Counted from the first letter of the stretch, positions 5,301-54,091 are shown. The stretch: 64,000 bases of DNA from Candidatus Moraniibacteriota bacterium (GCA_023261695.1 JAHFON010000003.1:6682-70681), one strand, 5' to 3'. Notes: generated from the sequence alone by a model not told the origin. Numbers and translations: made by a program.

Positions 5301-5792
5301 AATATCCTGATACTCCAAGGCTGCTTCTTTGGCGCGCGCGTAGTTGCCGTAGATGATTTCCGACGGCACCTCGCCCTGCAATGATCCGGAGAGCGCGATG
5401 AGTCCTTCGTGATATTGCCTAAGGAGATTTTTGTCGGCGCGCGCTTTATAATAAAAGCCTTCCAATTGGGCGATGGAAATGATTTTCATCAGATTTTTGT
5501 AGCCAGTCTGGTTTTTGACGAGGAGTACCAGCTGATGTCGGCGGCGGTCTTCGGCGGTGTTATTTTTGCTGTGCAGATCTTTGCAGACGAAAATCTCCGC
5601 GCCGATAATGGCTTTGATGCCAAAATCTTTAGCTTTGCTTTGAAATTCCACGGCGCCATAGAGCGCGGATGTGTCAGTGAGCGCGAGCGCCGTCATCCCG
5701 AGCTCCCGCGTCCGCGCCAAAAGCTCCTCTATTTTGGGCAGGGCGGTGAGTAGGGAGTAGTGAGAGTGAGTATGGAGATGCGTAAACCGCAT
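2334..5792 (-). CDS. dnaE: DNA polymerase III alpha subunit
   Basis: 1152 aa. N-terminal PHP motif MRFTHLHTHSHYSLL, polymerase core and OB-fold C-terminus. Confidence 0.95.
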   Translation of the reverse strand: MRFTHLHTHSHYSLLTALPKIEELLARTRELGMTALALTDTSALYGAVEFQSKAKDFGIKAIIGAEIFVCKDLHSKNNTAEDRRRHQLVLLVKNQTGYKNLMKIISIAQLEGFYYKARADKNLLRQYHEGLIALSGSLQGEVPSEIIYGNYARAKEAALEYQDIFGAGNFYLELGPNLEYENQIIANQGLVQLRRETDIPVVAACDAHYLKREHAEIQDILLCIRDNKKVSDTERFSMMTLDLSLRSPQEMAEIFKDLPEALENTEKIVQNINFQIPLGENHLPEFPLPENKTADAYLRELCELGLRKRFPEETITPEQRARIDYELGVVKKTGFASYFLIVQDFVNWAKDNGVVVGPGRGSAAGSFLAYLTGITDIDPIKYNLLFERFLNPERISLPDVDMDFADDRRDDVLNYVRQKYGDDHVAQIITFGTMAARAAVRDVGRALGYTYEFCDKTSKMIPMFTSITKALEEVREFKQWYESDAQAKKLIDIAMQVEGLVRHASMHACGVVITKDPVTEYTPLQRVAGNRSGVVTQYSASTKSNAVEKIGLLKMDFLGLKNLTIIQNTLRIVRKTKNETVHIEKIPLDDKLTFKLLQEARTTGVFQLESSGMKRYLKQLKPTVLEDIIAMVALYRPGPMEYIQDFIDGKHGTKKIKYLHPILEPILKNTYGVAVYQEQLMQIARDLAGFSLGEADVLRKAVGKKIKELVAEQREKFIQGCIRTGVGKNIGEKVFSFIEPFADYGFNRAHAACYALIGYQTAYLKAHYPAEFMAALLTSDQDNIDRIAIEINEAREMGIEVLPPSVNESFEEFAVIADNQIERIRFGLNAVKNVGRIAASDIVTQRKQNGRYATLEQFIERVKTKDLNKKSLEALIKVGALENFGERGELLESLDDILRHAKNLKAIADTHQSSLFGNMTLAASPIKLSPAIPIAKQTALKWEKELLGLYISDHPVKDYQDYFSKTAVTIKELEKKTNNAYVRLGGVIVSVRKIITKNQSEMYFVGLEDLTGRVELLIFGKTAELVQAFLIEGEVVLVNARVSHKDGALKCVAETLERVSPDTLIQFARGEATRAQHNTPRAQNNLVINVRNSAPQEIIERLSHLLKTIPTGPKKVAVQIGGTIIQTTFSLSPTEDHLAQIKNLDGVESITN

Positions 5793-12764: not shown

Positions 12765-14804
12765 ATGCCGCTCTTTCAGCTCAAATCAGTTTATCGACCG
12801 GCGGGCGATCAGCCTCAAGCCATTGAATCTTTGACGCGGGGTTTGCGTGAGAACAAACGTTTTCAAACATTGCTCGGCGTAACCGGTTCCGGCAAGACCT
12901 TTACGATGGCCAATGTCATCGCGCGAATGGATAAGCCGGCGTTGGTGATCGCGCACAACAAAACGCTGACGGCGCAACTGGCCCAAGAGTATCAGGAACT
13001 TTTTCCCGATCACGCGGTGCATTATTTTGTTTCTTATTACGATTACTACCAGCCGGAGGCTTATATGCCGATGACGGATACGTACATAGAGAAAGACGCC
13101 CAGATCAACGCCGAGATTGATCGTTTGCGGCACGCCTCTACGCTTTCTCTTCTGACGCGCCGCGACGTGATTATCGTGGCGTCCGTGTCTTGCATTTACG
13201 GATTAGGAAGTCCGGAAGAATACGAGAAAGAGAATCTGCGGCTGGATGTCGGTTGGCAATGTTCGCGCATGGAGCTTTTGCGTAAGCTGGTGGCTATTTT
13301 TTTTGAGCGCACCAACGCTGATTTGCGAAGCGGGCAATTTCGGAGTATGGGCAATCGCGTGGAAATTATGCCGATGTCGGAAAAGTTCACCTATCTTTTG
13401 GAAATCTCCGGCGGCAGATTGGCGAGTATCAAAAAAATTGACCCCATTTCCCAAAAAATTCTGGATATGCCGCAAACAATTCTGCTCTTTCCGACAAAAC
13501 ATTTTGTCGCGAATGCGGAGCAAAAAGCTTCTGCGCTCAACTCTATTAGTCTGGAATTGGCAGAGCGCTTGCAAGAACTTGAAGCAGATGGGAAACTTCT
13601 GGAAGCGGAGCGGCTCAAGCGGCGCACGCATTACGATCTGGCGGTGATGCGGGAGATCGGTTATTGCAACGGCATTGAGAATTATTCTCGCCATCTTTCC
13701 GGAAAAAAACCGGGCGAACCGCCGGAAACTCTTCTTTCATATTTTCCGCGCACAAAAAGCGGAGAACCGGATTTTTTGACTATTATTGACGAATCTCACG
13801 CGACATTGCCGCAACTACGCGGAATGTACGCGGGCGATTTGGCGCGCAAAAAAACGCTGGTCCAATACGGTTTTCGTCTGCCATCCGCGCTGGATAACCG
13901 CCCGCTTCGTTTCGCGGAATTTATGTCTCGTGTCGGACAGGTAATTTTCACTTCGGCTACGCCGGCGGAATATGAACGTGAAACAAGCGAGCAGGTGGTT
14001 GAGCAAGTGATCCGTCCGACCGGATTGGTGGATCCGAGAGTTGAGACACGGCCGATTTTGGAGCAGGGAAAATATCACGGTCAAATACAAGATTTTATCG
14101 CTGAAGCGCTGAAAGAAATACAGGGCAAGGGACGCGTGATCGCGACGACGCTTACCAAAAAGATGGCTGAAGATTTGAGCGCGTATCTGAAAGAAAAACA
14201 GATTAAAGCCGAGTATTTGCACAGCGATATCAAAACGATTGAGCGCATCAAAATTTTGACGGCATTTCGCAGGGGGGAGTTTGACTGTTTGGTGGGGGTT
14301 AATTTGTTGCGGGAAGGTTTGGATTTGCCGGAAGTTTCTTTCATTGGAATTCTGGACGCGGACAAAACGGGATTTTTGCGTTCGGAAACCGCGTTGATTC
14401 AGATTATCGGACGTGCCGCGCGCAACGCATCCGGCCGCGTGGTGTTGTATGCTGATTATATGACTGACGCGATGCGCTATGCGCTTGATGAAACGAATCG
14501 ACGGAGAAAACTGCAATTAGCCTATAACAAGCGGCACAATATCACGCCGCGAACTATCCAAAAAACCATTCACGATATTACGGAGAGTCTGGAGAGCGAG
14601 CATAGCAAAGCGGTGCGCGCCAACGTGCTTTTGGATCGGGAAATTTTCGCGAATGATCCCAAACGTTTTATCGCCATCAAAGAAAAAGAGATGCGCCAAG
14701 CGGTGAAGGAGCTGGATTTTGAAACAGCCGCCATTCTGCGCGATGAGATTCGCGCGCTTCAAGTTCCTGCGGACGGTCCGTCGCGCAAAAAACCTCGCGG
14801 GTAA
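12765..14804 (+). CDS. uvrB: Excinuclease ABC subunit B
   Basis: MPLFQLKSVYRPAGDQPQAIESL...LLGVTGSGKTFTMANVI, helicase motifs and C-terminal UVR motif (ILRDEIRALQ). Confidence 0.95.
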   Translation: MPLFQLKSVYRPAGDQPQAIESLTRGLRENKRFQTLLGVTGSGKTFTMANVIARMDKPALVIAHNKTLTAQLAQEYQELFPDHAVHYFVSYYDYYQPEAYMPMTDTYIEKDAQINAEIDRLRHASTLSLLTRRDVIIVASVSCIYGLGSPEEYEKENLRLDVGWQCSRMELLRKLVAIFFERTNADLRSGQFRSMGNRVEIMPMSEKFTYLLEISGGRLASIKKIDPISQKILDMPQTILLFPTKHFVANAEQKASALNSISLELAERLQELEADGKLLEAERLKRRTHYDLAVMREIGYCNGIENYSRHLSGKKPGEPPETLLSYFPRTKSGEPDFLTIIDESHATLPQLRGMYAGDLARKKTLVQYGFRLPSALDNRPLRFAEFMSRVGQVIFTSATPAEYERETSEQVVEQVIRPTGLVDPRVETRPILEQGKYHGQIQDFIAEALKEIQGKGRVIATTLTKKMAEDLSAYLKEKQIKAEYLHSDIKTIERIKILTAFRRGEFDCLVGVNLLREGLDLPEVSFIGILDADKTGFLRSETALIQIIGRAARNASGRVVLYADYMTDAMRYALDETNRRRKLQLAYNKRHNITPRTIQKTIHDITESLESEHSKAVRANVLLDREIFANDPKRFIAIKEKEMRQAVKELDFETAAILRDEIRALQVPADGPSRKKPRG

Positions 14805-14889
14805 ATTTTTTTCCAGCTTCATTTTCGTTACTTGCCTTGCGGCCGCTTTTTTGCGAGAATGGGTAAGTGTTAATTTTTTTTGGCTTTTT

Positions 14890-15588
14890 ATGACACGAAA
14901 GATTCGTGAGAGTTTTGTTGTAACCGCGGATGATTACGGTATTCGCCAGACGGCGGAGCCGATTTTGCGTTTGGCGCACGAGGGGAAAGTGGATCGCGTG
15001 GCGGTGCTGATCAATTATGTTTCTTCCGAACAAGCGGAGGCGCTCAAAGCCACCGGAGTGAAAATTGATTTGCACTTAGAATTGATTGGCTTGCTCAAAA
15101 GAGGAGAGAAAGCGCATGAGAATTTTCTTTTACGGAGCGTGAATTTTTGTTTTCGTTACGCTTTTGGTTTGGTAACAATGAGAAAAGTGGAAGAAGAATG
15201 GAAAGATCAGATACGGCATTTTCAGGAGCTTTTCCAGCGTCTGCCGGACGGGCTGAATTCTCACGAGTATCTGCATTGTTTTCCGCCGTTTTTCAAGGTT
15301 TTCATTCGGCTGGCGAAAGAACACAATATATCCTATGTCCGTTTCGGCAAGAAAGGTGTCTTGACTGGTTTGCATAAAACTTTCATCAGCGCGATCCTTT
15401 CTTTTTTTTGGGAACGCACGCACGCGAGCTTCGCCAAAACTCATCTGGCGACATCTGATTATATTGTGAGTTTAGACTGGCTCTCTGATTTCAAATCTTT
15501 TAGTGAACACTTGCCGGAAGGCAATATTGAGCTGGTGGTGCATCTGGAGCGGGAGGAGGATTATCGCGTGATACTGGAGTATTGTTGA
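14890..15588 (+). CDS. YdjC/ChbG-family carbohydrate deacetylase-like protein
   Basis: [17 protein letters not shown] near the N-terminus matches the YdjC family ADDFG motif. Start moved to ATG 14890 to avoid overlap with uvrB. Confidence 0.55.
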
Positions 15589-15592
15589 GGAT

Positions 15593-18175
15593 ATGCCCAA
15601 GAATATTTCGCAGAAAAATATTTCAGATACGCCGGAGTCGGGGTGGATCGTAGTCAAAGGCGCGCGCACCCACAATTTGAAGAATATTACAGTTAAGATA
15701 CCGCGCAATAAAATGACGGCTTTTACGGGACTGTCCGGCTCGGGTAAATCGTCGCTCGCATTTGACACTATTTTCGCGGAAGGCCAGCGTCGCTACATAG
15801 AATCGCTTTCCGCTTACGCGCGGCAGTTTTTGAATACCATGCAAAAACCCGACGTGGACGAGATCATCGGGTTGTCTCCGGCTATCTCCATTGATCAAAA
15901 GTCGGCGGGGCGCAACCCGCGTTCCACGGTGGCGACGGTCACGGAGATTTACGATTATTTGCGTGTTTTGTACGCGCGTTTGGGACGCTTGCGTTGTTTG
16001 ATTTGCGGAAGGGATATAGAGAAGCTGTCGCTGGAGGAAATGCTCGGCATTATCGCAAGTAAAATCAAACAAGCGCAAGCGGATCCTAAAACGCGCAAAC
16101 ACGGTCTTATCATCACGGCGCCGGTGGTGCGCGGACGCAAAGGCGAATATTATCAGCTTTTATACAACGCTTTAGGGCGAGGATTCGCGGAGATTATCTT
16201 GGATGGGGAGCGCAAGAATCTGCGCGAGCGAATTATTCTCTCTAAAAACAAAAAACACAATATTGATTTCATCGTGGATGAATTGCCGCTGGCTGAATTT
16301 GAAAAATTTCCCAAAACATCCGAAGAGCGTTTGTCTGAGGCGGTGCAAAAAGCGTTGGAAGAAAGCGAAGGACTGGTAAACGTGCGCGTCGGAGAGCAAA
16401 ATTTTACGCTTTCGGCGAAATTCTCTTGTCCTGATGACGGCTTTTCTTATCCGGAGGTGGAACCGCGCTTGTTTTCGTTTAATTCTCCGTACGGAGCGTG
16501 CGAGGCCTGCAATGGTCTGGGCACCAAACATTTTTTCGGCGATGAGTTATGCGAGATTTGTCAGGGCGCGCGTTTGCGTCCCGAAGCGCTGTCTATTTTT
16601 ATCGGCGGAAAGAATATCGCCGAAGTGGCGGCGATGACGATTGAAGAAGCGAAAAATTTTTTTGACGCTTTGGAACTTACGCCCCGGGAAAAACAAATGG
16701 CGGCGGTGATGCTTCGGGAAATTAGCGCGCGTTTGAAATTTTTGCTGAATGTCGGATTGAATTATCTGACGCTGGATCGGCGCGGGAGCACGCTTTCCGG
16801 AGGAGAAGCACAGCGCATCCGCCTGGCCAGTCAGCTCGGTTCGCAGTTGGTGGGGGCGCTCTATGTATTGGATGAACCGACGATCGGTCTGCATCAGCGC
16901 GACAATGATCGTCTGATAGAAACACTGAAAGCCCTGCGTGACTTGGGCAATACTATTATCATCGTTGAGCACGACGAGGATACGATTTATGCCGCGGATT
17001 ATCTCGTGGACATCGGTCCGGGAGCGGGAGTGCACGGCGGTGAAATAGTAGTCTCCGGTTATTTGGATGATCTGCTGACGGCCAGAGAGAACGTCTCCGG
17101 ATCATTGACACTGGCCTATTTGCGCGGCGAGGAAAAAATAACTATACCAAATCAGCGCCGCAGCAAAGAAAAAGGAACGCTCAAGATTCGCGGTGCCAAC
17201 ATTTTCAATATTAAAAATATGAACGTGGATGTTCCGCTCGGCCGTTTCAATGTGATTACGGGTGTTTCCGGTTCGGGCAAATCCACTCTGCTATATGAAA
17301 TAATTTACAAGAATTTGCAGGCGCGTTTTGACCGCCGTTACAGATCCAATGAAGTTTTTTACTGCCAATCATTCGGCGGTTCGGAATATCTGGCGCGGAC
17401 CGTCCTGATTGATCAGAGTCCGATCGGACGCACGCCGCGTTCCAATCCGGCGACTTACACCGGAGCGTGGACGCATATCCGCGATCTTTTTGCCGCAAGC
17501 GAAGAAGCGCGGGTGCGCGGCTGGAAAGCCGGACGTTTTTCTTTCAATCGTCCCGGCGGGCGCTGTGAAACTTGCGAGGGAAACGGTTTTCTCGCGGTGG
17601 AGATGCACTTTTTGCCCACCGTGTATATGGTGTGCGACGTCTGCGGCGGAAAACGTTTTACCAAAGAAACTCTGGAAGTGAAATATAAGCACAAGAATAT
17701 TTATGAAGTGCTGGAAATGACAATTGAAGAAGCATCGTCGTTTTTCGCCGATATTCCGGGTGTGGCGGATCGTCTGAAAACATTGAGCGAAGTCGGTTTG
17801 GAATATTTGAAACTCGGCCAGTCGGCCACGACGCTTTCCGGCGGCGAGGCCCAACGCGTGAAAATTTCTGCGGAACTGCATCGCAAATTTTATGACCGCG
17901 CGATTTATCTTTTGGACGAACCGACGATCGGATTGCACTACGCGGACGTGAAGAAACTCATTAAAATTCTGGAGAGTCTGGTGATCAAGGGGAATACCGT
18001 GTTGGTGATAGAGCACAATATGGATTTTATCAAAAACGCCGATTATGTGATTGACATCGGTCCGGAAGGCGGTGCCGGTGGAGGGAAAATCGTGGCGGTC
18101 GGCACGCCCGAAGAGGTGGCGCAAGCGGCGCACTCGCACACGGGGCGGTATCTGAAACGGGCACTGAAGAAGTGA
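15593..18175 (+). CDS. uvrA: Excinuclease ABC subunit A paralog (860 aa, lacks the insertion-domain segment)
   Basis: Two ABC ATPase modules ([14 protein letters not shown]; [11 protein letters not shown]), zinc-finger cysteines, UvrB-binding-domain motif [11 protein letters not shown]. About 90 aa shorter than the second copy between the CxxC motifs of the signature domain. Confidence 0.9.
18101..18175 (+). repeat. Direct repeat copy 1 (last 75 nt of uvrA), 59-nt identical core plus a similar terminal codon run
   Basis: ggcacgcccgaagaggtggcgcaagcggcgcactcgcacacggggcggtatctgaaacg is identical to 22069-22127. Both copies end ...LKKstop. Confidence 0.9.
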
Positions 18176-18269
18176 TTCAAGATTTGACATGAAGCATTTT
18201 ATTTTACACAAATTTCTGTATAATGAAACTAAGGGGGTTGGCCCCTTTAATTATAATTGGTAAACATTT

Positions 18270-20084
18270 ATGGAATTATTGCTAGCCATCATCGCGCTAA
18301 TTTTTTCGGCGATAGCATATAATCGTGTATCCAATCTCGAAAAAGTAGTGAAACGGATACAGACAACAGGTGTTCAGGCGACACCTTTTATGGATCAGTC
18401 ATTAGAACCGCCGTCGCCAATATCCAAATCGGAGGATCTTTCTTCGCAATCTGGAGCAACCTCTTCGCCGGTGTCAGCATCGGAGGATGTTGTTTCTTCT
18501 CAGCAAAACGCGACACAGTTTCCCGGTTCGTCATCTTCTACGCAGCAAGTTTCGGCCCAGACTGTTTTGCAGAATGAGTCGAATGTTATTGAGCAGTTTT
18601 TTCATTGGCTTGCAGTTGATTGGTTAATGAAGCTTGGTGCAGTACTACTTTTTTTGGGAATTATTTGGTTTGTCAATGTCGCAGTATGGGATGCCATAGG
18701 TGAAACTGGACGTGTGTTGATCGGTGTTATGGTTGGTGTTAGTATACTTGTTTTTGGTCATGTTTGGATTGCTAAATATGTGAATCAAGGAACGGTATTG
18801 GAAGGATTGGGAGCGGGTGTTATGCTATTTACGATGTACGTAGCGCAAGAAAGTTACCATTTTTTCCCTCCTGTCGTAGCTCTGGGATTCCTTTTTCTCG
18901 TCTCTGTTTTTGTTGCGTTTTCAAGTGTTGTTAACGGAAGTCAGGCATTGGCGCTTCTCGGTATCGTGTTGGGTGGAGTAGCGCCGTTTTTGATTGGCTC
19001 GTCGGAAGCGAATTTTATCGGACTTTTCTCGTACCTTTTTGTAATATCTATCGGAACGCTTTGGGTCGTGCGTATTCGCGGTTGGCGACCGCTTATCTTT
19101 GCCGCCTTTCTTGCTTATTTTTTCTATTCGTTACCGTATATATTTGGAGCGATGGAGAAAGTTTCTATAGGAGAAGGGATGTTGGTCGCGCTTGTTTTCG
19201 CGACGCTCTTTTTTGTGTCAAATATATGGGCGGCACTCAAATCAGAAAAGATGCATCAGGCTGATATGGTTACCGCTTCTGCCAACGCGTTACTTCTTTT
19301 GGGATGGATAAATGCCCTTGTCCCGGCTGATTGGAAAGGGCTAGTGACAGCTGTATGTGCTTTGGCGTTTTGTTTTGGTGCGGCACTCGTGTTCCGTTTG
19401 CGGGGCAATGGAGTCCCCGTTATGCTCTATACGGCGGTTGCCGGTATGATGTTTGGAGTCGCAACGACCTTTGAGTTTTCCGGTCCGATGCTTGTCGTAG
19501 CATTAACTTTGGAAGTTGGTATCCTGGTAACCGCAACCATCGCTTTTGCTAGAGATATAAGTGCCGCCAATATTATGATGTATCTTTTTCTCATCCCTAT
19601 TTATTTGTCTGTGATGAATATAGGGAATTACTCGGTTGCCAAACAAGTATTTACGGTTGATTTTTTCGCCCTTGTTCTTTTGGGCGGGGCACTCTTCTTG
19701 ACAGCGAGGCTTTTCAGGACTCCGAAAGATGATAGTGAGCAGGTGACCAAATATCACGTTTTCACCGCAGTCGGTTCGCTGTATTTTTTATTGCTTATCT
19801 GGCTTGGTCTCGGGAACTTGTTATATCCGAACCGTGATTTGGCAGTCACTATTTCTTTGGTGATCTACACGATTATTGGTTTAACGTTGTATATTTTTGG
19901 CAAGCTTAATGCGGCGCGCGGCAAAATGTATAGTGGAGCAGCGCTGTTATTGTTTGTGGTGGGGTATCTTCTTTTGGTGTCTGTTCGGGAAATGGAGATT
20001 GTCGGGCGCATTGTGACTTTTTCTCTGGTGGGTATTTTACTCATGAGCACCGCCTTTATCGGAAGGTGGTCTCGTCGTAAATAG
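18270..20084 (+). CDS. Polytopic membrane protein with Ser-rich low-complexity N-terminus (about 14 TM)
   Basis: Long hydrophobic helices throughout residues 110-600. No catalytic motif recognised. Confidence 0.45.
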
Positions 20085-20101
20085 TATATTTTTCAAACAT
20101 T

Positions 20102-21268
20102 ATGAAAAAAATAGCCAAGAAAATAATAGTGGCCGTTTCGTTGTTTTTTGTCGGAGTTATATTCTTTTCGGTTTTAGCTGTTTTTGCCAAGGAAAAAACT
20201 GAAATGGCGGAGGATTCTTTGCGTGCATTTGTTTGGATGAAGGATGTGCCGGTTCCTGCAATAACAATTCCGACTGTTGTGGAGGCGCCTATTGATGAAT
20301 CTACAGGAAACGAAGGCTTTGCTGTATTCGAAGAAACAACGAAAACTTTTCAGCCAAGCCTTTTTAAGGAATCTATTCAATTTACAAAAGTGGCGTTTTC
20401 AGTCGAAGCTCTCGGGAAAACATCTCAAATTTTTTCCGATGGAGATGCGACTAATTTCATAGAATTTCCGGTAAGCGATGAGCGTGGAGCAACTGCCGAA
20501 TTACGTATCCATTCAATGTCTCCGATTGCTGCTACGGGTCTGATGTTTTCTTTAGATCGCTTTGTTGCTCTACCTCGAACAATCGAAGTGCGCGCGATAG
20601 TGGATGGGACAGAGAGAATTGTTTTGGCTTCTTCTATGCTGAATGATCGAGTGATTCGTTTTCCCAAAGTATCAGCGGCAGAATGGACGGTACGTTTTGG
20701 ATATGTTCAGCCACTTCGCATTACCGGACTTTCTTTTTTTGAAGAGGATAATGCGCATATCAATTCTGCTGGCGTGCGGTTTTTGGCGCGTCCAGGCGAG
20801 CGATATCGGTTGTATCTAGGGACTGACAGACTAGTACCGATCCGCGTCGGGGAGCGGCCAAATCTATTTGATGATAGAGATGTTGTGCGTATCGCTGATT
20901 CCGAAAAAGTTAAAAATCCATTATATGTTCCAGTTGATACTGATGAAGATGGTGTGAAAGATCTTTTGGATAATTGCGTTTTTGATAAGAACTCTGATCA
21001 GAAAGATGAAAATTCAAACGGGCGTGGTGATGTTTGTGATGATTATGATCACGACGGTATCGCGAATGGAAAAGATAATTGTATGTCCTATCCGAATAGT
21101 GATCAGAGAGACACGGACGGCGATGGGAAAGGTGACATATGTGACTCCGAAGAGAGTAGGGTTCTAGAAAAATATTCATGGTTATCATGGGCTGGTATCA
21201 GTTTAGCGGGAATTGTCGTTGCTATTTTGTTTGCTTTAACGATGCGGCAGATGAAGAGGAATAAATAA
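20102..21268 (+). CDS. Membrane-anchored protein with thrombospondin type-3-like calcium-binding repeats
   Basis: N-terminal [16 protein letters not shown]...[26 protein letters not shown]...[15 protein letters not shown] (DxDxDG...C repeats), C-terminal TM. Confidence 0.5.
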
Positions 21269-21292
21269 CTTAAGCATCTAATCAAAAGAATT

Positions 21293-22030
21293 ATGGAAGG
21301 CGGACAAGTTCCAATAAGTGAGAATGTACCCCCATCTGATCAGTTACTCGCTCTAAACAGTAACTATCAATTAGCAAGAGTGCTTTTTTTTGTACTTTTT
21401 ATTGGATTGATAATTTTCTTGCCGATCGGAGTTATTTTATCGAAGAAGCATGATACAGAAAAGGCAGCATTATTAAAGTCTCAACTGTTGGATGCACAAG
21501 CGAATCAGAAATTGCAAATGGATGCTCAAACAAATCAAAATCTGAAAATACAGAGTGATGCCGCGATGAATAACGAGACGACATATAAACAACCGGAAAA
21601 TAATTCCTTTCCAGCCGGACAGACTGCGCCGACTACTGTAGTGAATGGAAATGGGCAGACGCCCCAGTCTGTTCAGGTACCTGTTCGACAGTTACAACAG
21701 ACTGAAATAATAGGGATGATCCAAAATGCGCTTGTAAAGGTAACTGATAGTATAAAAGCGTGCAAGGCTGGATCTGGATTAATAGGCTCTCAAGGAACCG
21801 GAGGCATGCCACTCTGTGATTTCCAGTCTGATGTTTGGCCAGTGCTTGAATATTGCGGACAATGGCCATCAGACACAAAGTATATCGTGTTTAATTCTGG
21901 TACGGCTGATAATTGGGATGTGACTATAGTGTGTAGGCAAGTCCAAAGTTGTAATGGTCCAGAAAACGCTATTTGTAATAAAAATGGTTGTACATTTAAG
22001 GGGACGTGTCCGCCGGTGAGAGGCTACTAA
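21293..22030 (+). CDS. Hypothetical secreted/anchored protein, Q/N-rich with Cys-rich C-terminal domain
   Basis: N-terminal TM helix, 10 Cys in last 90 aa. Confidence 0.35.
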   Translation: MEGGQVPISENVPPSDQLLALNSNYQLARVLFFVLFIGLIIFLPIGVILSKKHDTEKAALLKSQLLDAQANQKLQMDAQTNQNLKIQSDAAMNNETTYKQPENNSFPAGQTAPTTVVNGNGQTPQSVQVPVRQLQQTEIIGMIQNALVKVTDSIKACKAGSGLIGSQGTGGMPLCDFQSDVWPVLEYCGQWPSDTKYIVFNSGTADNWDVTIVCRQVQSCNGPENAICNKNGCTFKGTCPPVRGY

Positions 22031-22068
22031 ACATATCGAAAAAACGCGCTGTAAAAATTGTTGTCAGT

Positions 22069-22143
22069 GGCACGCCCGAAGAGGTGGCGCAAGCGGCGCA
22101 CTCGCACACGGGGCGGTATCTGAAACGCGTGTTGAAAAAATGA
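22069..22143 (+). repeat. Direct repeat copy 2 (orphan duplicate of uvrA 3' end)
   Basis: 59-nt identity with 18101-18159. Retains in-frame ...GRYLKRVLKK stop but has no upstream uvrA body. Confidence 0.9.
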
Positions 22144-22185
22144 ATGTGTTATAATGCAGATAACCTAATTTTTTCACTAAATATT

Positions 22186-22770
22186 ATGCAAGATGTCAGC
22201 CAAGACGTTTCCGCGCCGGCGCCGAAAAAGAAATTGGGCATTGTCAAATGGGCGCTGATTGTCGGTATCGCGGTCGTGATAAATCTCTTTTTGGTTTACC
22301 TGGTGGACTCTATACGCAAGGAGCCTGGATATACGGATTTTTGTCCGGAGCGTCAGGTAAATCGGATGATTGAATCAGAGGCGGAATGTTTGAAAGTTGG
22401 CGGGCAATGGAACGAAAGCGCGGATGTAAGAATACAAAAAACGCCGGAGCAGTCTTTTCCCGCGCCTGCCGTTCCTAGCTATTGCGATCCTGATTACACT
22501 TGCCGCAAACAACACGAAGACGCGCTGAAAATATATAACCGCAACGTGTTTGTGATATTTGTGATCGCGGGGATTATGCTTTTGATTGCCGGCGTGTACG
22601 CGGGAGGGACTGAAGCGGTGTCATTGGGACTTTCTTTCGGCGGGGTGATCGCTTTAATTTACGGTTCAGGGCGCTATTGGTCGGATATGAACGATATTTT
22701 AAGAGTCATTGTTTTAGGTATGGCGCTGGTAGCTCTTATATATGTGGCGTGGAAAAAATTCCAAGATTAG
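22186..22770 (+). CDS. Hypothetical membrane protein (N- and C-terminal TM helices)
   Basis: Track start 22144 abuts the duplicated stop codon. A -10-like tgttataat precedes ATG 22186. Confidence 0.4.
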   Translation: MQDVSQDVSAPAPKKKLGIVKWALIVGIAVVINLFLVYLVDSIRKEPGYTDFCPERQVNRMIESEAECLKVGGQWNESADVRIQKTPEQSFPAPAVPSYCDPDYTCRKQHEDALKIYNRNVFVIFVIAGIMLLIAGVYAGGTEAVSLGLSFGGVIALIYGSGRYWSDMNDILRVIVLGMALVALIYVAWKKFQD

Positions 22771-22782
22771 CATTATTTTGTT

Positions 22783-24087
22783 ATGAAATTGTGGGATAAA
22801 ATTTTAACCTTGGAAAAATTCCAAAAGAAAAATACACTCCCTGATTTACCCGGAGTGTATTTTTTCTTGGGCGCGAAAAAAGAATTGCTCTACATCGGCA
22901 AGGCGACGATTCTTCGCGATCGGGTAAAAAGTTATTTCTCTCATAATGTTCTGGCTACGCGCGGACCCAAAATCGGGCGAATGCTGGAACTGACGCGTTT
23001 TGTCGCTTATCGGACGGCGGATTCCGTGTTGGAAGCGTTTATCTTGGAGACGAACTTGATCAAGCAATATCAGCCGCCGCACAATACTTCCGCTAAAGAT
23101 GACAAGAGTTTCAATTACGTCGTAATCACTCGGGAAAAATATCCGCGAGTGCTGGTCAAAAGGGGACGGGATATTCTTCATTCCCATCAAACGTTGGAAA
23201 CCGGTCGGGAGTATCAGAAAATATTCGGCCCTTTTGCTTCAGGTGGCGCGCTTCGCGAAGCGCTGAAAATCGTGCGCAAAATTTTCCCTTTCAGAGACAA
23301 ATGCGCGCCGTATGAGGAATGGTTCCTCAAACAAAAAATCAAAACGCGCGGCGGACAAAATAGCGGTGGTGCCGGCGCGCCGTGTTTTATGGCGCAGATC
23401 GGATTGTGTCCGGGTGTTTGCGAGGGAACGATTACCGCGCGCGAATATCAGCGGACGATTCGTAATATCATTATGTTTTTTGAAGGACGTAAAAATCAGC
23501 TTTTGAAAAAACTGGAACGTGAAATGCAAACGTCTGCGAAGAATTTGGAATTTGAACGGGCGGGTGAAATCAAAAAAACCTTGTTTGCTTTGCGGCACAT
23601 TCGTGACACGGCGTTGATCAAAAATGAATCAGGAATTTTGACAGGAAGAATTGAAGCCTATGATGTGGCGCATCTGGCGGGGACCGCGAGTGTCGGCGCG
23701 CTGGTCGTGGTGCAAAATGGTTTGGCGGACACGAGCCAGTATCGGAAATTCAAATTGCGGCGTAAACATCATGGCAACGACTTGACGGCTTTGCAGGAAA
23801 TTCTGGAGCGCCGCTTGAAGCATACGGAGTGGCCTTTGCCAGATATCATCGTGGTAGACGGAGCGGATCTGCAGATCGGCGCGGCCAAGCAGGCACTTTT
23901 GACTTCGGGTCTCACGATTCCGCTTATCGGGGTGGTGAAAGATGCCAAGCATCAGCCGGAGCGTTTGATGGGAGAGGAGAAGCTCACGAAACGTTTCCAG
24001 AAGGCCATTCTTCTGGCAAATAGCGAAGCGCATCGTTTTGCCATTACTTTTCACCGCCATCGCAGAAAAAAAGAGTTTTTACCATAG
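22783..24087 (+). CDS. uvrC: Excinuclease ABC subunit C, short form (GIY-YIG + UVR + endonuclease domain, no C-terminal HhH)
   Basis: GIY-YIG motif GVYFFLGAKKELLYIGKA...R, UVR-like FERAGEIKKTLFALRHI, RNase-H-like IEAYDVAHLAGTASVGALVV. 434 aa. Confidence 0.8.
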   Translation: MKLWDKILTLEKFQKKNTLPDLPGVYFFLGAKKELLYIGKATILRDRVKSYFSHNVLATRGPKIGRMLELTRFVAYRTADSVLEAFILETNLIKQYQPPHNTSAKDDKSFNYVVITREKYPRVLVKRGRDILHSHQTLETGREYQKIFGPFASGGALREALKIVRKIFPFRDKCAPYEEWFLKQKIKTRGGQNSGGAGAPCFMAQIGLCPGVCEGTITAREYQRTIRNIIMFFEGRKNQLLKKLEREMQTSAKNLEFERAGEIKKTLFALRHIRDTALIKNESGILTGRIEAYDVAHLAGTASVGALVVVQNGLADTSQYRKFKLRRKHHGNDLTALQEILERRLKHTEWPLPDIIVVDGADLQIGAAKQALLTSGLTIPLIGVVKDAKHQPERLMGEEKLTKRFQKAILLANSEAHRFAITFHRHRRKKEFLP

Positions 24088-24108
24088 TCGCTTAAAAAGG
24101 CGCGCCGC

Positions 24109-24138
24109 TTGACAAAATGGGCAGTTTTAGCGTAATAT
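24109..24138 (+). promoter_or_regulatory. Near-consensus sigma70 promoter for the HD/radical-SAM operon
   Basis: TTGACA (24109-24114), 18-nt spacer, TAATAT (24133-24138). RBS aaaggagaaagg before ATG 24217. Confidence 0.55.
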
Positions 24139-24216
24139 AAAACGTCATACCAGTGACGTTAAATTCTGGTAAGAACTTTGACAATTCAAGCAAAATTTAA
24201 GAAAGGAGAAAGGCGG

Positions 24217-25722
24217 ATGAACAAATTCGTGAATTATCTCGATCCGACTGTCCCGGTTGAGGAACGTCTGCGATGGGCATTCGATGAGTTACGGCTGTCA
24301 AATGATCAGCGGGAAGGCGTCGTTGCCTTTCTGCACCCACTCAAAGTCAAAGATCGTGCCACTTATGAACACAGTATTAGAGTGGGGTTGCTGGCTCGTC
24401 GCATTGCTCGCTTCATGCATCTTGATGAGAGGGCACTGCTCTATGCTGGCTTACTTCATGACACAGGAAAGTGTCAGACCTGGTTGGGAACACTTCAAAA
24501 GACTGAAGGCTGGACACCTGCCGATACAGAGGAAATCAAACAACATGTTCTTGATGGCCACCGACTAATTCATGGTCATTTTGATTTCACTGCAGAGGTT
24601 ATCCTTTGGCACCACCGTTTTCAGGCTGGCGGTTATCCAAAAAAAATGCCTGCGCCATTGCATGAATACAGCGAGGGAACTAAGACGATGATCGCTTTCT
24701 ATGGTCGTATTCTGGCGCTGGCTGACTGTTTCGATGCACTGCATCGGGTCAATGACAAGTTTGGCGCGCTTACCGGTGAGCAGGTAGAGGAAAAGATGAT
24801 CGCGCTCAATCGTGATCAGCGGGTTTTGGTCGAGGAGTTGTACAATGCCGGCGTTCTCACTACCTATGTGGTCAGTGAAGAACTGGCAATCCTGCAACCG
24901 CTCGATATTCACGATCAGCTGTACCTGCAAATCTGGGAGCGACAGCAGTCAGCACGGACAGTCGATGAGACAATTCGTGGTATCGTGCTGGCGACCGCAT
25001 TGGAACCATTATCCGACAAGGCAGGCTGCACCACCCGACACCGCAATCTGAATCGCTGGCAAAAGCTTGAGTACTTTATCGCAGCGGCGATAAATATTGG
25101 AGATGCGTTTCGCGACCTTCTTACTGCAATCGGTAGTAGTCGGCGACAAATGCCAACCATCTACCAATACGCTTTAGCGGCGCAGAAGGAGAGCAAACGT
25201 AACCGTCGTGGCGGTCGTGTGAACCATGGCATTATTGAGTTGCTGTTGCCCGTCGTGGTGGCACAGCACGTGTATGACATGGAACGACAACTCACGGCAG
25301 AGGAAGTTCTTACCAAAGCCGTTGAGGTGCTCAAGCAAACATCTGCGGATGATATCCGTTATCTCCGCGAGATGAAGCGATTTGCGTTTGACCTTAGTGG
25401 CTATTTCGATCGTCCTGTACCGGAGTGTTCGACGGCTCATACCGTATTTGAGTACTACGAACAAGACTTGGGTACCTCAACCAAACAAACTGGCATTGCT
25501 CATAATTCCGAGTTTGTGAAGGGGTTCCCAACGGTGGCAGCTGTTTACATGGCAATGTGTAAGTGTCAGCTTCCTGAACTGAACAGCAAAACAGAAGAAG
25601 CTTACCAGAGAGCGGCTGCTTTGCATCACGGTGATGTGGCGAGCGGTTTTTTGGCTGACTGTGTGGCTGTTGGGTTGTATCTGCAGCTGTCACATAATCC
25701 GAAGTGTAAACTCGTATCTTGA
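24217..25722 (+). CDS. HD-domain metal-dependent phosphohydrolase with about 300-aa C-terminal extension
   Basis: H...HD...H...D pattern: YEHSIRVGLLA...LLHDTGK...ILWHHRF...LADCFDALH. Track ORF begins at TTG 24178; ATG 24217 has a strong RBS. Confidence 0.7.
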   Translation: MNKFVNYLDPTVPVEERLRWAFDELRLSNDQREGVVAFLHPLKVKDRATYEHSIRVGLLARRIARFMHLDERALLYAGLLHDTGKCQTWLGTLQKTEGWTPADTEEIKQHVLDGHRLIHGHFDFTAEVILWHHRFQAGGYPKKMPAPLHEYSEGTKTMIAFYGRILALADCFDALHRVNDKFGALTGEQVEEKMIALNRDQRVLVEELYNAGVLTTYVVSEELAILQPLDIHDQLYLQIWERQQSARTVDETIRGIVLATALEPLSDKAGCTTRHRNLNRWQKLEYFIAAAINIGDAFRDLLTAIGSSRRQMPTIYQYALAAQKESKRNRRGGRVNHGIIELLLPVVVAQHVYDMERQLTAEEVLTKAVEVLKQTSADDIRYLREMKRFAFDLSGYFDRPVPECSTAHTVFEYYEQDLGTSTKQTGIAHNSEFVKGFPTVAAVYMAMCKCQLPELNSKTEEAYQRAAALHHGDVASGFLADCVAVGLYLQLSHNPKCKLVS

Positions 25723-25733
25723 AGGGAGATTCA

Positions 25734-27335
25734 ATGCAAACCAAGCGACATATCCAATTCTGGACAATCGCTGAGTCGGAGCCTTCAACACACGAAGACC
25801 TGGAAGAAGGTGTTGGCCCGTACCTTTTGGCCACGATGGCCAAAAGGGCGGGTTACACTGTTTCTTCTTACCAAGCCAGTCAATATGGCTGTGACGCAAA
25901 AGCGATAGTTACTCAGATAAAAACTGACTTGCCGGATATTCTGGCACTCAGCATTTTTTCTGGCGGCATCCATCTCCTTCGTGAAGTTCTAGGTAAGGTT
26001 GATAACGCCCTTCCTGTGATGATCGGAGGGCCCGGAGCAACCAGTGAACCAGCGCGCGTTCTGTCAGAGATCGGCACTTCGCGACAACCAATAGGACCAG
26101 TTGCCCTGGTACAGTCGGAGGGAGAAAGTGCCTTTGCAGCACTCCTCGCAAGTGAACCAGGACAATGGGGTACGATTCCGCAGTGTTGGCGATTGAGCCA
26201 TGATGGGAAAATCCTGTCTGGACAGTTCGGTGCACTGCGTGACCTGGATGAAAAACCGCTGGTTGATCTGTCTTCCAGCGTCATGCGGCGTAAGTGTGAA
26301 GGTGTTTTCCGAGATGATGCGATGCCGTTGCAACAAAGGATTCGTGCCATTCAGGCACTGCAACACTGCTACGTTGAAACTCGCCGTGGGTGTTTTTTCA
26401 AGTGCGAGTTCTGTAGCGAACCGCAACTTACCGTGAAGGGTGTCAGAAAAACATCGCCTGCACGGGCAATTCAAGAGGTGCAGCATCTCTTTGAGAATTT
26501 CGGCATCACGTTCTTCAACTACGCTGATAATATCGCCTTTGATGACGAAGTGTGGTGGCGAACATACGCTGAACTCCTGCAACAACTTCCGTACCATCAC
26601 CTGATCCAGTTTGGCGGTTACGGTACGCCAAAGTTTTTCAGTAAGAAGATGTGGTTTTCGGAAACACTGCCTCTGCTGTGTAGGGCTGGTCTCTGCTTCG
26701 TTACGCTGGGCGTCCAATCGGGATCGCGACGAATTTTGAAAGACATCATCCACCGTCCACCCGATGATCCTGAGAAGGCCATGGAAGTTGTGCGTCAATG
26801 TGCCCCACTAGGATTGAATGTTAAAACAGACTTCATCGTGGGTCATCCCACCGAAACAATTGATGATCTAAAGATGACTCATCGCTGGGTCAGGCAGCTG
26901 TATAACGCTGGAGCACAGGTTTTTGTTCGAAGATTAGGTATCGTTCCCAAATCGGGTTATGATTTCCGCCTTCGTGACAACTTCTACACCCCGCCTGCTC
27001 ATAGTGAGGAGTCAGAAGGTGTTATAACTGACATTCTCTGGTACCACAGCAGAAAGGATAACTGGCTGAAGGCTGTTGCTAACACGCAACCAAATCTGTT
27101 CTTGATTGATCGGGAACAACACACGTTGTTTCCGAAGCCCCGATACGATATGACTACACTTTTGACTGACGCCAAGAAAGTGGTCTATCTACCGGAGCCG
27201 CTCCGAGAGCGATTCACGACACTCTTCGAGTTGGTTATTAGACTGAAATCGTGGCCGTCCCGGTCCCGTGGGAATAACATCTCGCGGGACTTTTTTATTT
27301 TCTTCTCGTCAACCTTTTTGAATTTCGGCGAGTAG
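25734..27335 (+). CDS. Cobalamin(B12)-binding-domain radical SAM enzyme
   Basis: N-terminal Rossmann-like B12-binding region (ILALSIFSGG...PVMIGGPG), canonical CxxxCxxC (CFFKCEFC). RBS aagggag before ATG 25734 (track start is TTG 25719). 11 nt after the HD gene stop, same strand. Confidence 0.75.
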   Translation: MQTKRHIQFWTIAESEPSTHEDLEEGVGPYLLATMAKRAGYTVSSYQASQYGCDAKAIVTQIKTDLPDILALSIFSGGIHLLREVLGKVDNALPVMIGGPGATSEPARVLSEIGTSRQPIGPVALVQSEGESAFAALLASEPGQWGTIPQCWRLSHDGKILSGQFGALRDLDEKPLVDLSSSVMRRKCEGVFRDDAMPLQQRIRAIQALQHCYVETRRGCFFKCEFCSEPQLTVKGVRKTSPARAIQEVQHLFENFGITFFNYADNIAFDDEVWWRTYAELLQQLPYHHLIQFGGYGTPKFFSKKMWFSETLPLLCRAGLCFVTLGVQSGSRRILKDIIHRPPDDPEKAMEVVRQCAPLGLNVKTDFIVGHPTETIDDLKMTHRWVRQLYNAGAQVFVRRLGIVPKSGYDFRLRDNFYTPPAHSEESEGVITDILWYHSRKDNWLKAVANTQPNLFLIDREQHTLFPKPRYDMTTLLTDAKKVVYLPEPLRERFTTLFELVIRLKSWPSRSRGNNISRDFFIFFSSTFLNFGE

Positions 27336-27386
27336 GTAAAAATTGGGGAGTTTGAGGGGAAAATTTTTTGCCCGCGAGCGAAATTA

Positions 27387-27430
27387 CCGCCGCCCGAGCG
27401 TCAGCTGGCGGCGGGTTAGCGTTTGTTTTG
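27387..27430 (+). terminator. Rho-independent terminator after the radical SAM gene
   Basis: ccgccgcc-(12-nt loop)-ggcggcgg followed by gttagcgtttgttttgg. Confidence 0.6.
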
Positions 27431-27740
27431 GAAATAGGTTCTAACTTGGTACAATAGAGACACAAATAAATAGTTTTTTTGTGCTGTAATTATACACCTC
27501 GTGCGCCATCAGTTCCGTTCAAAGTAGGTTCGGATTTCGTCAAATAAACGCACTATCTAAATAGTACTCCTTTTTGGAATGCTATTTTCAATAATTTGAG
27601 CGGGAGGAATGAGAAGGGCGCGAGTAGAAAGCGAGCAAGCAATCTCTCACTGAAGCTATACAAGCCTCTTTACACCGCGCGAAAAAGAATGTATGCTGGG
27701 AGACAATTGCGTTTTCTTTGTCAGCAGACTTTCCATAACT

Positions 27741-30539
27741 ATGCCGGGAAAAAAATCGGTTATTGAAATTCGCGGCGCGCGCGTCAACAATCTGAAAAAC
27801 GTGAACGTGGACATTCCGCGTGACGCTCTTGTGGTGATCACCGGACTTTCCGGTTCCGGAAAATCTTCTTTGGCTTTTGATACTTTGTTCGCGGAGGCCA
27901 ATCGGCGCTATGTGGAATCGCTTTCTTCGTACGCGCGCAATTTTCTGGACAATCTGGATAAACCGGATGTGGATGCGATTCACAATCTCTCACCGGCCAT
28001 TTCTATTGATCAGAAGAGTGTGTCGCGCAGTCCGCGTTCCACCGTCGGCACAATGACGGAAGTTTATGATTATCTGCGAGTGCTGTTTGCCAAACTCGGT
28101 GTGCCGCATTGTCCTGTGTGCGGCAAGCGTCTGACAAGAAAGAGCGCGCGCGAAATACTGGACGAGATTTTGCGTTTACCTGATGAGACGGCGCTGATTT
28201 TTACGGCTTATAATCCGACCTTGGTTGGAAAAACTGAAACTGAAGCGCTGGTCTCCATTGGCGGTTTAGGTTACGCGCGGGTGTTTTTTCGCGGAACTTT
28301 GTTGACGGTTGCCGAAGCCTCTGCCTTGGCTTCTCCCGTGAAAGTTTCCAAGGTAGAAATTGTTATTGATCGTCTGACTCTGGATTTCTCTCGCCTCGAC
28401 AAGGAGCGTATATTGGATTCTGTGCAGACGGCTTTTCACGTGGGGCAGGGAACATTTGTATTGCGCGTTCCTGCCACCGGCGAAGAGCGTTTTTATAATG
28501 AAGAGTACCTCTGTGAAAAATGCGGCGTGCATTTGCCGGAATTTACGCCGCGGCATTTTTCTTTCAATAATCCTGAAGGGGCCTGCGAGCAATGCGCCGG
28601 CCTTGGCGTAACATTGAAATTTGATCCGGAGCTCATCATTCCCAATAAAAATCTCTCGCTCTCCGAGGGGGCGATCCGTCCTTGGAGCAAAACCAACGGT
28701 GATCGCCATACCGGACAGGGGACGATGCAGTGGCTTCGCGAAGCCAGCCGCCAACACAAGTTTTCGCTGGACGTGCCGGTGAAAAAACTTTCTGCCAAAC
28801 ATTTGAATCTTATATTGTACGGAGAACGCGATGAACGCCAAGACGCTTTTCCGGGAGTCGTGGCACTGCTTCAAAAGAAATACCGTGAGACTAAATCCGA
28901 CCACTCACGTGCCGATATTGAGGCGTATATGTTGGTTAAAATCTGTTCGCTTTGCGAAGGCAGACGTCTGAAAGCCTCGGCGCGGGCCGTGAAGTTGGAA
29001 GGGTTTTCCATCAGTGATCTGACGCGCCAAAGCGTGGCGGCATTTTTGGAAACGCTGAAAGTTTTGCGCGAAAAATTATTGAAGACGGAGAAGTTGAAAA
29101 TTCTTGATCCTTTGTTTCGCGAGATGTCTATGCGTCTGCACGCGGTGGAAAAAGTGGGTTTGGGATATCTGGAACTCTCTCGCGGCGCCGACACTCTTTC
29201 TGGCGGAGAAGCCCAGCGTATACGTCTGTCGGTGCAGATGAAATCCGGGCTCTCGGGCATCATTTATGTTTTGGATGAACCGACCATCGGATTGCACAGC
29301 CGTGACACGGAAAGATTGATCAATGCGCTGGAAGATTTGCGCCGCGCCAATAATTCGCTGGTGGTGGTGGAACACGACGTTGCGATTATGCGTCGGGCGG
29401 ACTATATCATTGATATGGGTCCGGGGGCTGGCAGTAACGGCGGAGAGGTTATTTTCGCGGGCACGCCGAATATGCTTACGCATTCCAAACTTCTGACGGG
29501 GCAATATCTCTCCGGCAAGCGCGTTTTATCCGAAAAGAAACAATCGCGGCGCTTGAGCGAAGCGGCGATTACTATCTGCGGCGCGACCGAGCACAATCTG
29601 AAAAATATTGACGTAACGATTCCTCTGGGTATGCTGGTGGCGGTTTCCGGTGTTTCTGGTTCAGGGAAATCCAGTTTGGTGCATAATATTCTTTCCCGCG
29701 CTTTGTCCAAATATTTCTATCGTGCCAAACTTGAGCCGGGAGCGCATAAAAAAATCACCGGACTTTCCAATCTGGACAAAGTGATCACTGTCACCCAAGA
29801 TCCGATAGGCCGGACGCCGCGCTCCAATGCCGCGACATATACGGGGGTGTTTAGTTTGATCCGCGACTTGTTCGCGGAAACGATTGAAGCGGAGCGTGAT
29901 AAATATTCAGCCAGCCATTTTAGTTTCAATATGCGCGGCGGCCGCTGTGAAGCATGTCAGGGCGGCGGGTTGAAAAAAATTGAAATGTATCTTTTGCCGG
30001 ATGTTTACGTGCCGTGCGAAGTTTGCCAAGGAACGCGGTATAATGCCAAGACGCTGGCCATTGAATATCGCGGAATGAATATTGCCGACGTGTTGCGTAT
30101 GACGATAGCGGACGCGCGGAAATTTTTTCTGGATCAGCCGCTGATTGAAGAGAAATTGCGCGTTTTGGAAGAAGTCGGTCTCGGGTATCTCGTGTTGGGT
30201 CAGAGCGCGACCAATCTTTCCGGCGGAGAAGCCCAACGTATCAAACTGGCGACGGAACTTGCGCGCAAATCAACGGGCAAGACGCTCTATATTCTGGACG
30301 AGCCGACAATCGGTCTGCATTTTGAAGATGTGCGGCGTTTGTTTGAGGTGTTGGAGGCTCTGGTGGCGAAGGGGAACAGCGTGCTGGTCGTGGAGCACAA
30401 TATTGACGTGATTCGTTATGCCGATTGGGTGTTGGAGCTTGGTCCGGAGGGCGGCGAGCAGGGCGGCGAACTTATTTTCTCCGGCAGTCCCGCGAAATTA
30501 AAAACTTGCGCGCGTTCTTTCACGGCAAAGTATTTGTAA
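27741..30539 (+). CDS. uvrA: Excinuclease ABC subunit A (full-length, class I)
   Basis: [20 protein letters not shown]...[14 protein letters not shown], UvrB-binding and insertion domains present, second ABC module [11 protein letters not shown]. About 930 aa from ATG 27741. Confidence 0.95.
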
Positions 30540-50253: not shown

Positions 50254-50407
50254 TTTGTTAAATTTTCCTTGATTTGCTACACTAACACCTCACAATCGAG
50301 TGGGTTAATTATGTTGAAATTGTGGAAACAAGTTCTTTATCAATTGAATGTATGATGAAGGAGAGCGTTGGTATTTTACAACAATGAAAAAACTAGGGAG
50401 GGGTATT

Positions 50408-50842: not shown

Positions 50843-50980
50843 TCAGCTAACGAAGAAGGGTAGTTTACTATTTGCTGTAAGCCCTCGTGGTGGTAAGTTG
50901 TCCACCACGGGGGACTTTTTATTTTTGGAAAAATACCATATTATTAAATTCGGGTAGTCTATTAATATTGCTTAGTTTGT

Positions 50981-54067: not shown

Positions 54068-54091
54068 TGATAATTTTTTTAGTTTTAATAT

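Follow-up and report, generated by a model that had tools for sequence, protein, structure and literature searches.

A mobile HD-GYP/CitG-like and B12-type radical SAM gene pair from Candidatus Moraniibacteriota as a candidate nucleotide-tailoring cassette

In this study, we analyzed a 64,000-nucleotide (nt) stretch of DNA from a Candidatus Moraniibacteriota bacterium (GCA_023261695.1, JAHFON010000003.1:6682-70681), referred to here as the window, with all coordinates counted from its first letter. The analysis centered on two adjacent genes on the plus strand, open reading frame (ORF) A followed by ORF B (Table 1), which we rate as a small, putatively nucleotide-tailoring radical S-adenosylmethionine (SAM) cassette built around a CitG-like core that is without precedent. 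By analogy with characterized enzymes, the reading that we favor, at a probability of about 0.45, is that the cassette encodes a mobile pathway of three activities for tailoring a small molecule that contains a nucleotide or ribose. A preliminary description of this DNA had placed a co-directional gene pair with an 11-nt spacer between uvrC and a second uvrA and had read it as an HD phosphohydrolase plus a B12-type radical SAM enzyme; the ORF coordinates bear out the first point and Pfam the second (HD and Radical_SAM, with B12-binding below its cutoff). The extra C-terminal region that it mentioned on the HD protein is also present, as a CitG-fold domain of ~270 residues, and was given too little weight. 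Its broader view that the enzymes point to nucleotide or ribose chemistry is supported by the combination of an HD phosphohydrolase, a B12-type radical SAM enzyme and a domain of the ATP-using ribosyl-transferase type.

Within the cassette, the radical SAM enzyme is consistently linked to the CitG-like domain. A CitG-like gene directly adjoins the homolog of ORF B in 12 of the 12 distinct loci with a visible flank. At two loci (L009 and L044) that neighbor is a stand-alone CitG-like gene lacking HD, and because HD is absent there, the partner conserved alongside the radical SAM enzyme is the CitG-like domain. Homologs of ORF B are few (~21), while ~78 full-length homologs of ORF A were found among 5.8 billion clusters searched, mostly in bacteria of the candidate phyla radiation (CPR; Parcubacteria, Jorgensen-, Harrison- and Yanofskybacteria), with some in archaea, including DPANN, and in Bdellovibrionota. 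When 185,579 species genomes were scanned, 24 loci were detected, and their hosts were again of these kinds: CPR, archaea (Woesearchaeota and others), Bdellovibrionales and one metagenome-assembled genome labelled as Gammaproteobacteria. The sequence identities of partner ORF A and ORF B proteins co-vary (r 0.75, 55 pairs), and in a neighbor-joining tree the members linked to a radical SAM gene are interleaved with solo members, a pattern consistent with joint inheritance followed by repeated losses, or with transfer of the pair as a single unit. The cassette is optional and patchy in its distribution across CPR bacteria, DPANN archaea and Bdellovibrionota.

Our results also demonstrate that the cassette is a horizontally mobile two-gene unit. 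The preliminary description had judged its composition to be unlike that of the flanking genes, and this was strongly confirmed: against resampled host usage the codon-usage deviation of the two ORFs is z = 6.8 and 9.0, compared with 1.1 for uvrC and 2.6 for uvrA, the symmetrised dinucleotide signature distance of 24217–27335 is 180 (x1000), the window maximum, with most segments at 20–85, and the relative abundance of CpG is 1.00 in the pair versus 1.37 in the window. The GC content of the pair (0.48–0.51) is the same as that of the window. The codons preferred by the host, which are the CpG-containing GCG, CGC, ACG and CCG together with AAA, TTT and TAT, are not preferred by the pair. With respect to the codons singled out earlier, the host is indeed rich in GCG, AAA and TTT and the pair is enriched in CTG, but CAG is not enriched in the pair and ACC only marginally so. 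The foreign composition, a promoter-like site of its own and terminator-like hairpins together support the earlier proposal of a self-contained, horizontally acquired operon. A search for repeats at the borders of the cassette, direct or inverted, gave only short ones at chance level, neither insertion scars nor transposase genes were recognized around it, and a tRNA search of the window found neither a tRNA gene nor a tRNA integration site. Its neighborhood is different in each genome: uvr genes here, a P-type ATPase gene with MOFRL/PPDK in L004, rpiB-rpe with transketolase genes in L063, a patatin gene in L064, and PolD and eIF genes in the archaeal L011, the annotated neighbors across loci being housekeeping or hypothetical genes. 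Because the neighborhood differs at every locus the cassette behaves as mobile, and because it is not conserved between genomes the DNA-repair setting is incidental; the tie to excision repair that had been suggested was accordingly not sustained, and a role in DNA repair was rejected.

Three further observations touch on these comparisons. The copy in L063 (1278–6927), a related CPR contig, is 67% identical and lies between rpiB-rpe and split transketolase genes; this pentose-phosphate cluster could be either a hint at a ribose-phosphate function or a neutral insertion site. The highest codon deviation of the window (z 15) belongs to dnaE, encoding DNA polymerase III alpha (2334–5792), one of the few genes on the minus strand, and as GC skew is positive throughout the window (~+0.15) its deviation may reflect strand-specific bias and not foreign origin. 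A low-GC island at 50348–55966 (0.32–0.37 versus ~0.47; codon z 12–14) carries genes for a fusion of an asparagine-synthase/GATase with an NMT1/THI5-like domain (50981–54067) and for the second B12-binding radical SAM enzyme of the window (54092–55966; B12-binding 1.6e-14), and is probably a further acquired biosynthetic cassette.

Pfam matched the N-terminus of ORF A to HD (2e-14) and also to HD_5, the latter being found in 37 of the 38 family members. A search of the PDB with the 38-member profile returned the HD-GYP phosphodiesterases PmGH (4mcw, 6.5e-22), V-cGAP3 (5z7c, 2.3e-12) and PA4781 (4r8z), which are its nearest sequence relatives and have in common with it the H...HD...H...HH...D ligands and the YP. 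Across the 38 sequences the metal ligands H52, H81-D82, H110, H132-H133 and D173 are invariant or nearly so, and they align with the ligands of PmGH. At the level of sequence, these features show the HD domain to be an HD-GYP-class metal phosphoesterase with its catalytic residues intact. It nevertheless differs from those phosphodiesterases in two respects. Where they have HHExxDGxGYP, the family has HHxFQxxxYP, in which Q136, Y140 and P141 are invariant and the canonical E and D are replaced. In addition, ORF A is without a receiver, GAF or other sensor domain, and the C-terminal partner of its HD domain is instead the enzyme-like CitG domain.

The C-terminal domain of ORF A was matched by the Pfam family CitG (PF01874) over residues 257–446 (E 1e-6, 29.0 bits versus a cutoff of 27), as were 15 of the 38 family members, with a best E of 2.9e-10. 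Invariant residues of the domain include R254, E263, K268 and N329. An exhaustive HMMER search with its profile recovered 149 clusters out of 1.84 billion representatives, and we regard the domain as a small, distant family with a predicted CitG fold. CitG converts ATP and 3'-dephospho-CoA to adenine and 2'-(5''-triphosphoribosyl)-3'-dephospho-CoA; the enzyme needs a 3'-dephosphorylated acceptor, and its product is an alpha-linked 5-(tri)phosphoribosyl glycoside. To our knowledge, characterization of this chemistry has otherwise been confined to the prosthetic groups of two enzymes, citrate lyase and malonate decarboxylase. Membership in PF01874 is what the domain has in common with CitG and MdcB, which are accompanied by CitX/MdcG and acyl carriers, whereas the domain described here is fused to HD-GYP, is paired with a radical SAM enzyme and forms a distinct, very small family.

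ORF B comprises a Rossmann-type N-terminal domain, a radical SAM core and a private C-terminal domain of ~100 residues, the last ~24 residues of the protein being a non-conserved, low-confidence tail. NCBIfam models, including TIGR04013, TIGR04014 and HpnJ, gave it 67–75 bits, far below their family cutoffs of 251–360. A PDB profile search with the ORF B family returned MgmA (9ccb, 1.4e-10), a methyl-coenzyme M reductase glutamine C-methyltransferase, as well as TokK, CysS and TsrM. These class-B methylases are the nearest solved relatives of ORF B, which differs from them in having an identity of only ~17–21% and its private C-terminal domain, and, with respect to MgmA, in there being no methyl-coenzyme M reductase context in its hosts at the loci examined. 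Foldseek returned MgmA, OxsB and TsrM at indistinguishable scores, a result that reflects generic architecture only, and MiaB and RimO were good structural matches too. The ORF B clade is an orphan B12-type radical SAM family with an obligate CitG-like partner.

The same logic recurs elsewhere with other proteins. In the archaeal locus L031 (JABHNB010000005.1, 4282–8342) a stand-alone CitG-like gene has on its flanks a B12-binding radical SAM gene, a Dus-family (dihydrouridine synthase) gene and a His_Phos_1 phosphatase gene; that radical SAM enzyme is a distinct and distant one, aligning with the ORF B family by hhalign at a probability of 95% (E 2e-8), and the phosphatase is CobC-like, with phosphoglycerate mutases matching it equally well. 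In L065 (Woesearchaeota, JBDRIZ010000072.1, 1378–5096) the gene for P0135 (677 residues), a fusion of a cyclic nucleotide monophosphate (cNMP)-binding domain to a CitG-like domain, overlaps by a few bases that of a TIGR03960-like B12-type radical SAM enzyme (563 residues), and an RNase Z-like metallo-beta-lactamase gene adjoins. In all, three separate B12-type radical SAM lineages co-locate with CitG-like genes. Elsewhere the CitG-like domain is fused to a PNKP-type HAD phosphatase (P0185) or to a second HD-like N-terminal domain recognized by motif only, with no Pfam HD match (P0158). Also found near CitG-like genes are a DHH/DHHA1 protein, whose Pfam DHHA1 match is weak and below cutoff, and thymidylate-kinase-like and NUDIX genes. 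Four archaeal loci of DPANN type have, directly upstream of the stand-alone CitG-like gene or its radical SAM gene, a gene for a His-rich protein of ~210 residues with the motifs HVQH, RPHDIIG and HRxQYHH (copies 65–69% identical to that of L009). This protein had no Pfam, PDB or HD-GYP-profile match and may be an unrecognized metal hydrolase in place of the HD domain. The recurring theme is a CitG-like domain with a phosphoesterase of varying fold, often together with a B12-type radical SAM enzyme.

The favored tailoring pathway would have three steps. By analogy with CitG and MdcB, the CitG-like domain would use ATP as donor, displace adenine and transfer the 5-triphospho-alpha-ribosyl group to an acceptor hydroxyl. 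The HD domain would cleave a phosphoester, either unmasking the ribose of the acceptor or trimming the triphosphate of the product; HD-GYP, PNKP-type HAD and DHH proteins characteristically act on nucleotide 3'-phosphoesters. The radical SAM enzyme would modify the same metabolite by a radical step; since MgmA, TsrM, CysS and TokK, the closest relatives of ORF B with known structures, are methylases, C-methylation is the likeliest modification. A more far-reaching version, which we advance tentatively and consider somewhat unlikely, is that the three activities constitute an unrecognized mobile pathway to a new ribosylated, C-modified nucleotide-type metabolite. In that version the CitG-like domain would triphosphoribosylate an acceptor other than dephospho-CoA in an ATP-dependent manner, the metabolite would be a cofactor, signal or antimetabolite, and the pathway would be specific to organisms living on other cells, namely CPR bacteria, DPANN archaea and Bdellovibrionota.

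Several results weigh against the tailoring pathway. The relationship to CitG is a distant one, as judged from a Pfam score barely over the cutoff, and canonical CitG was not recovered above noise in the exhaustive HMMER search. Alignment by hhalign of the family profile with the single E. coli CitG sequence gave no significant match, and the assignment was therefore kept on fold and Pfam evidence. Because of this distance, the retention of the CitG reaction is an assumption. With the E. coli citCDEFXG operon as the comparison for a CitX-linked context, no CitX/MdcG, acyl carrier subunit, or lyase or decarboxylase genes were found among the annotated or clustered neighbors at ~30 distinct loci. 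The radical step is accessory, because most HD-CitG genes are without a radical SAM gene (17 loci). Cobalamin binding by ORF B is likewise uncertain, because the Pfam B12-binding score (29.8 bits) is under the 32.1 cutoff and because, although ORF B has the Rossmann-type N-terminal fold, AprD4, which is not known to use B12, matches it structurally as well as B12-using enzymes do; several ORF B homologs are also without a precomputed PF02310 match. Finally, HD-GYP domains usually cleave cyclic dinucleotides, an activity that would fit a signaling role instead.

Such a role has been weighed in the form of a cyclic-nucleotide signaling or abortive-infection-type effector, with the HD-GYP domain degrading a cyclic (di)nucleotide and the CitG-like domain acting as a regulated output, for example an ATP-depleting N-glycosidase. 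The proximity of the HD domain to cyclic di-GMP and cGAMP phosphodiesterases argues for it, as does the cNMP-binding sensor domain that P0135 has instead of HD, and near L065 and L011 there are metallo-beta-lactamase genes weakly like cyclic-nucleotide-degrading phosphodiesterases, the match in L011 being to Anti-Pycsar_Apyc1. However, at none of the loci does a cyclase, CD-NTase or other sensor gene lie alongside, PADLOC was negative and the HHExxDGxGYP motif is altered. An effector would also leave unexplained the obligate B12-type radical SAM partner and the associations with HAD, His-phosphatase and DHH proteins, and we consider it unlikely. A quite unlikely alternative is that the CitG-like domain and phosphatase serve a cofactor, building an alpha-ribotide (such as the alpha-ribazole-type unit of a cobamide lower ligand) or a phosphoribosyl prosthetic group needed by the neighboring B12-type radical SAM enzyme or by another enzyme. 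The alpha-linkage of the CitG product, the CobC-like phosphatase adjoining in L031, the co-location of three radical SAM lineages with CitG-like genes and the second B12-binding radical SAM enzyme of the window are all compatible with this idea, which is wholly inferential; against it, CobS, CobU, CobT and corrinoid-transport genes are lacking among the annotated neighbors, and the L031 phosphatase could as well be a phosphoglycerate mutase by its matches. We also think it very improbable that the cassette modifies the 3' ends of RNA or nucleotides, with the phosphoesterase healing a 3'-phosphate or 2',3'-cyclic phosphate, the CitG-like domain ribosylating the 2'-OH and the radical SAM enzyme modifying the RNA or adduct. 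This would make sense of the fused PNKP-type 3'-phosphatase of P0185, of the DHH/DHHA1, Dus and RNase Z-like genes near CitG-like genes, and of the structural match of ORF B to MiaB, which modifies tRNA, and RimO, which modifies a ribosomal protein. Those neighbors vary among loci, though, and may be coincidental, neither ORF A nor ORF B has an RNA-binding domain (TRAM, PUA or THUMP), and the N-terminal domain of ORF B is without the conserved Cys triad for a second cluster.

The preliminary description had instead proposed kinship with OxsA/OxsB, that is, a radical SAM enzyme remodeling the sugar moiety of a phosphorylated (deoxy)adenosine and an HD enzyme dephosphorylating the resulting product to give a chain-terminating nucleoside analog with antiviral or antibiotic action. 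OxsA, of oxetanocin-A biosynthesis in Bacillus megaterium, is a YfbR-like HD enzyme that is small and stands alone, in contrast to ORF A, a 501-residue fusion whose HD domain is of the HD-GYP class, an outcome that the description itself had named as speaking against its proposal. In addition, neither OxsA nor OxsB was matched at E<=10 in the PDB profile searches with ORF A and ORF B, respectively. OxsB has four domains (N-terminal, Cbl, radical SAM and C-terminal) in ~730 residues (PMC13331322, which also sets out the logic of the OxsA/OxsB pair); the 533-residue ORF B is without its extra N- and C-terminal domains. OxsB was among the top Foldseek matches, though its score equals those of MgmA and TsrM. 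Adjacent genes of the same two superfamilies, and the binding of an adenine nucleotide by characterized relatives of the CitG-like domain, make action on such a nucleotide plausible, but the conserved partner of the radical SAM enzyme is the CitG-like domain and not HD. The cassette thus resembles the Oxs pair only in combining a phosphohydrolase with a B12-type radical SAM enzyme that would act on a nucleotide, and we give the Oxs-like explanation a slim chance. The antiviral defense role that went with it was not substantiated either: PADLOC gave weak, generic, noise-level matches only (Cas3 HD 3e-6 and PDC-M51A 1e-6 over 70 residues), there are no viral copies, and no defense genes were noticed among the examined neighbors. 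A viral origin of the cassette was rejected, as IMG/VR held no HD-CitG homolog and the viral radical SAM matches were remote (<=26% identity).

In the literature searched no paper ties CitG to radical SAM or to HD-GYP, and no NCBIfam or PADLOC model describes the cassette. The genomes of CPR bacteria and DPANN archaea are very small, and these organisms presumably rely on their hosts for nucleotides and cofactors. Because this conserved mobile enzyme cassette is retained in such genomes, it likely matters for the biology of these organisms. If the CitG-like chemistry holds, the CitG reaction would have been carried into a new context, and the two genes would offer a cloneable system for finding a new nucleotide-derived metabolite. 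The comparison with OxsA/OxsB is also a caution, in that having two superfamilies in common did not mean homology to the Oxs system.

Table 1. Features of the cassette and its surroundings, in window coordinates unless another locus is named
Feature	Location	Strand	Remarks
uvrB	12765–14804		farther upstream
Other uvrA	15593–18175		farther upstream
uvrC	22783–24087		upstream of ORF A; short UvrC, 434 residues
Sigma-70-like promoter, TTGACA-N18-TAATAT	24109–24138	+	predicted; 10/12 consensus match by pattern scan
Perfect 7-bp palindrome, AACGTCA-N6-TGACGTT	24141–24160	+	directly after -10 element
Alternative ORF A start	24178	+	in-frame TTG upstream of ATG
ORF A ribosome-binding site	24203–24208	+	AAGGAG
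ORF A	24217–25722	+	501 residues counted from ATG; HD-GYP-class phosphohydrolase fused to CitG-like domain
HD-GYP-class HD domain	24310–24750	+	residues 32–178 of ORF A
CitG-like all-alpha domain	24919–25719	+	residues 235–501 of ORF A
Spacer	25723–25733	+	11 nt, with AGGGAG as ribosome-binding site of ORF B
ORF B	25734–27335	+	533 residues; B12-binding-type radical SAM, orphan family
N-terminal Rossmann-type cobalamin-binding-like domain	25746–26183	+	residues ~5–150 of ORF B
Radical SAM core	26346–26948	+	residues ~205–405 of ORF B; Pfam Radical_SAM 1e-15
C220-x3-C224-x2-C227	26391–26414	+	invariant in family alignment
Intrinsic-terminator-like hairpin with U-run	27262–27301	+	12-bp stem at 27262–27291; dG -20.6 kcal/mol, z -2.6
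GC-rich hairpin CCGCCGCC...GGCGGCGG	27387–27415	+	3' of ORF B stop; weak T-run next
Second uvrA	27693–30539		downstream of ORF B
His-rich ~210-residue protein	L009 7355–8017; L032 6367–6987; L034 85–798; L035 2649–3293		

The near-consensus promoter reported earlier upstream of the pair was recovered as a sequence match, and promoter-like sites across the region number 5 versus 3.3 expected by pattern scan, i.e., they are not enriched. The palindrome that follows it forms a hairpin in the centroid fold and may be the operator of a repressor or a hairpin of the 5' leader, with a regulatory role inferred. The GC hairpin noted after the pair was likewise found, in a region that folds at -31.3 kcal/mol (z -2.4), and a second, terminator-like hairpin lies inside the 3' end of ORF B, within its last ~25 codons. 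Rfam gave no riboswitch or other RNA match, and no cobalamin riboswitch, in the leader or the entire window. Regulators of the TrmB type occur near the module in several other loci, and none adjoins the cassette here.

The excision-repair cluster in which this copy of the cassette is located extends over 12765–30539 and includes two UvrA paralogs. It is broken by the cassette and by membrane- or secreted-protein genes at 18270–22770 that have a lower GC content at third codon positions.

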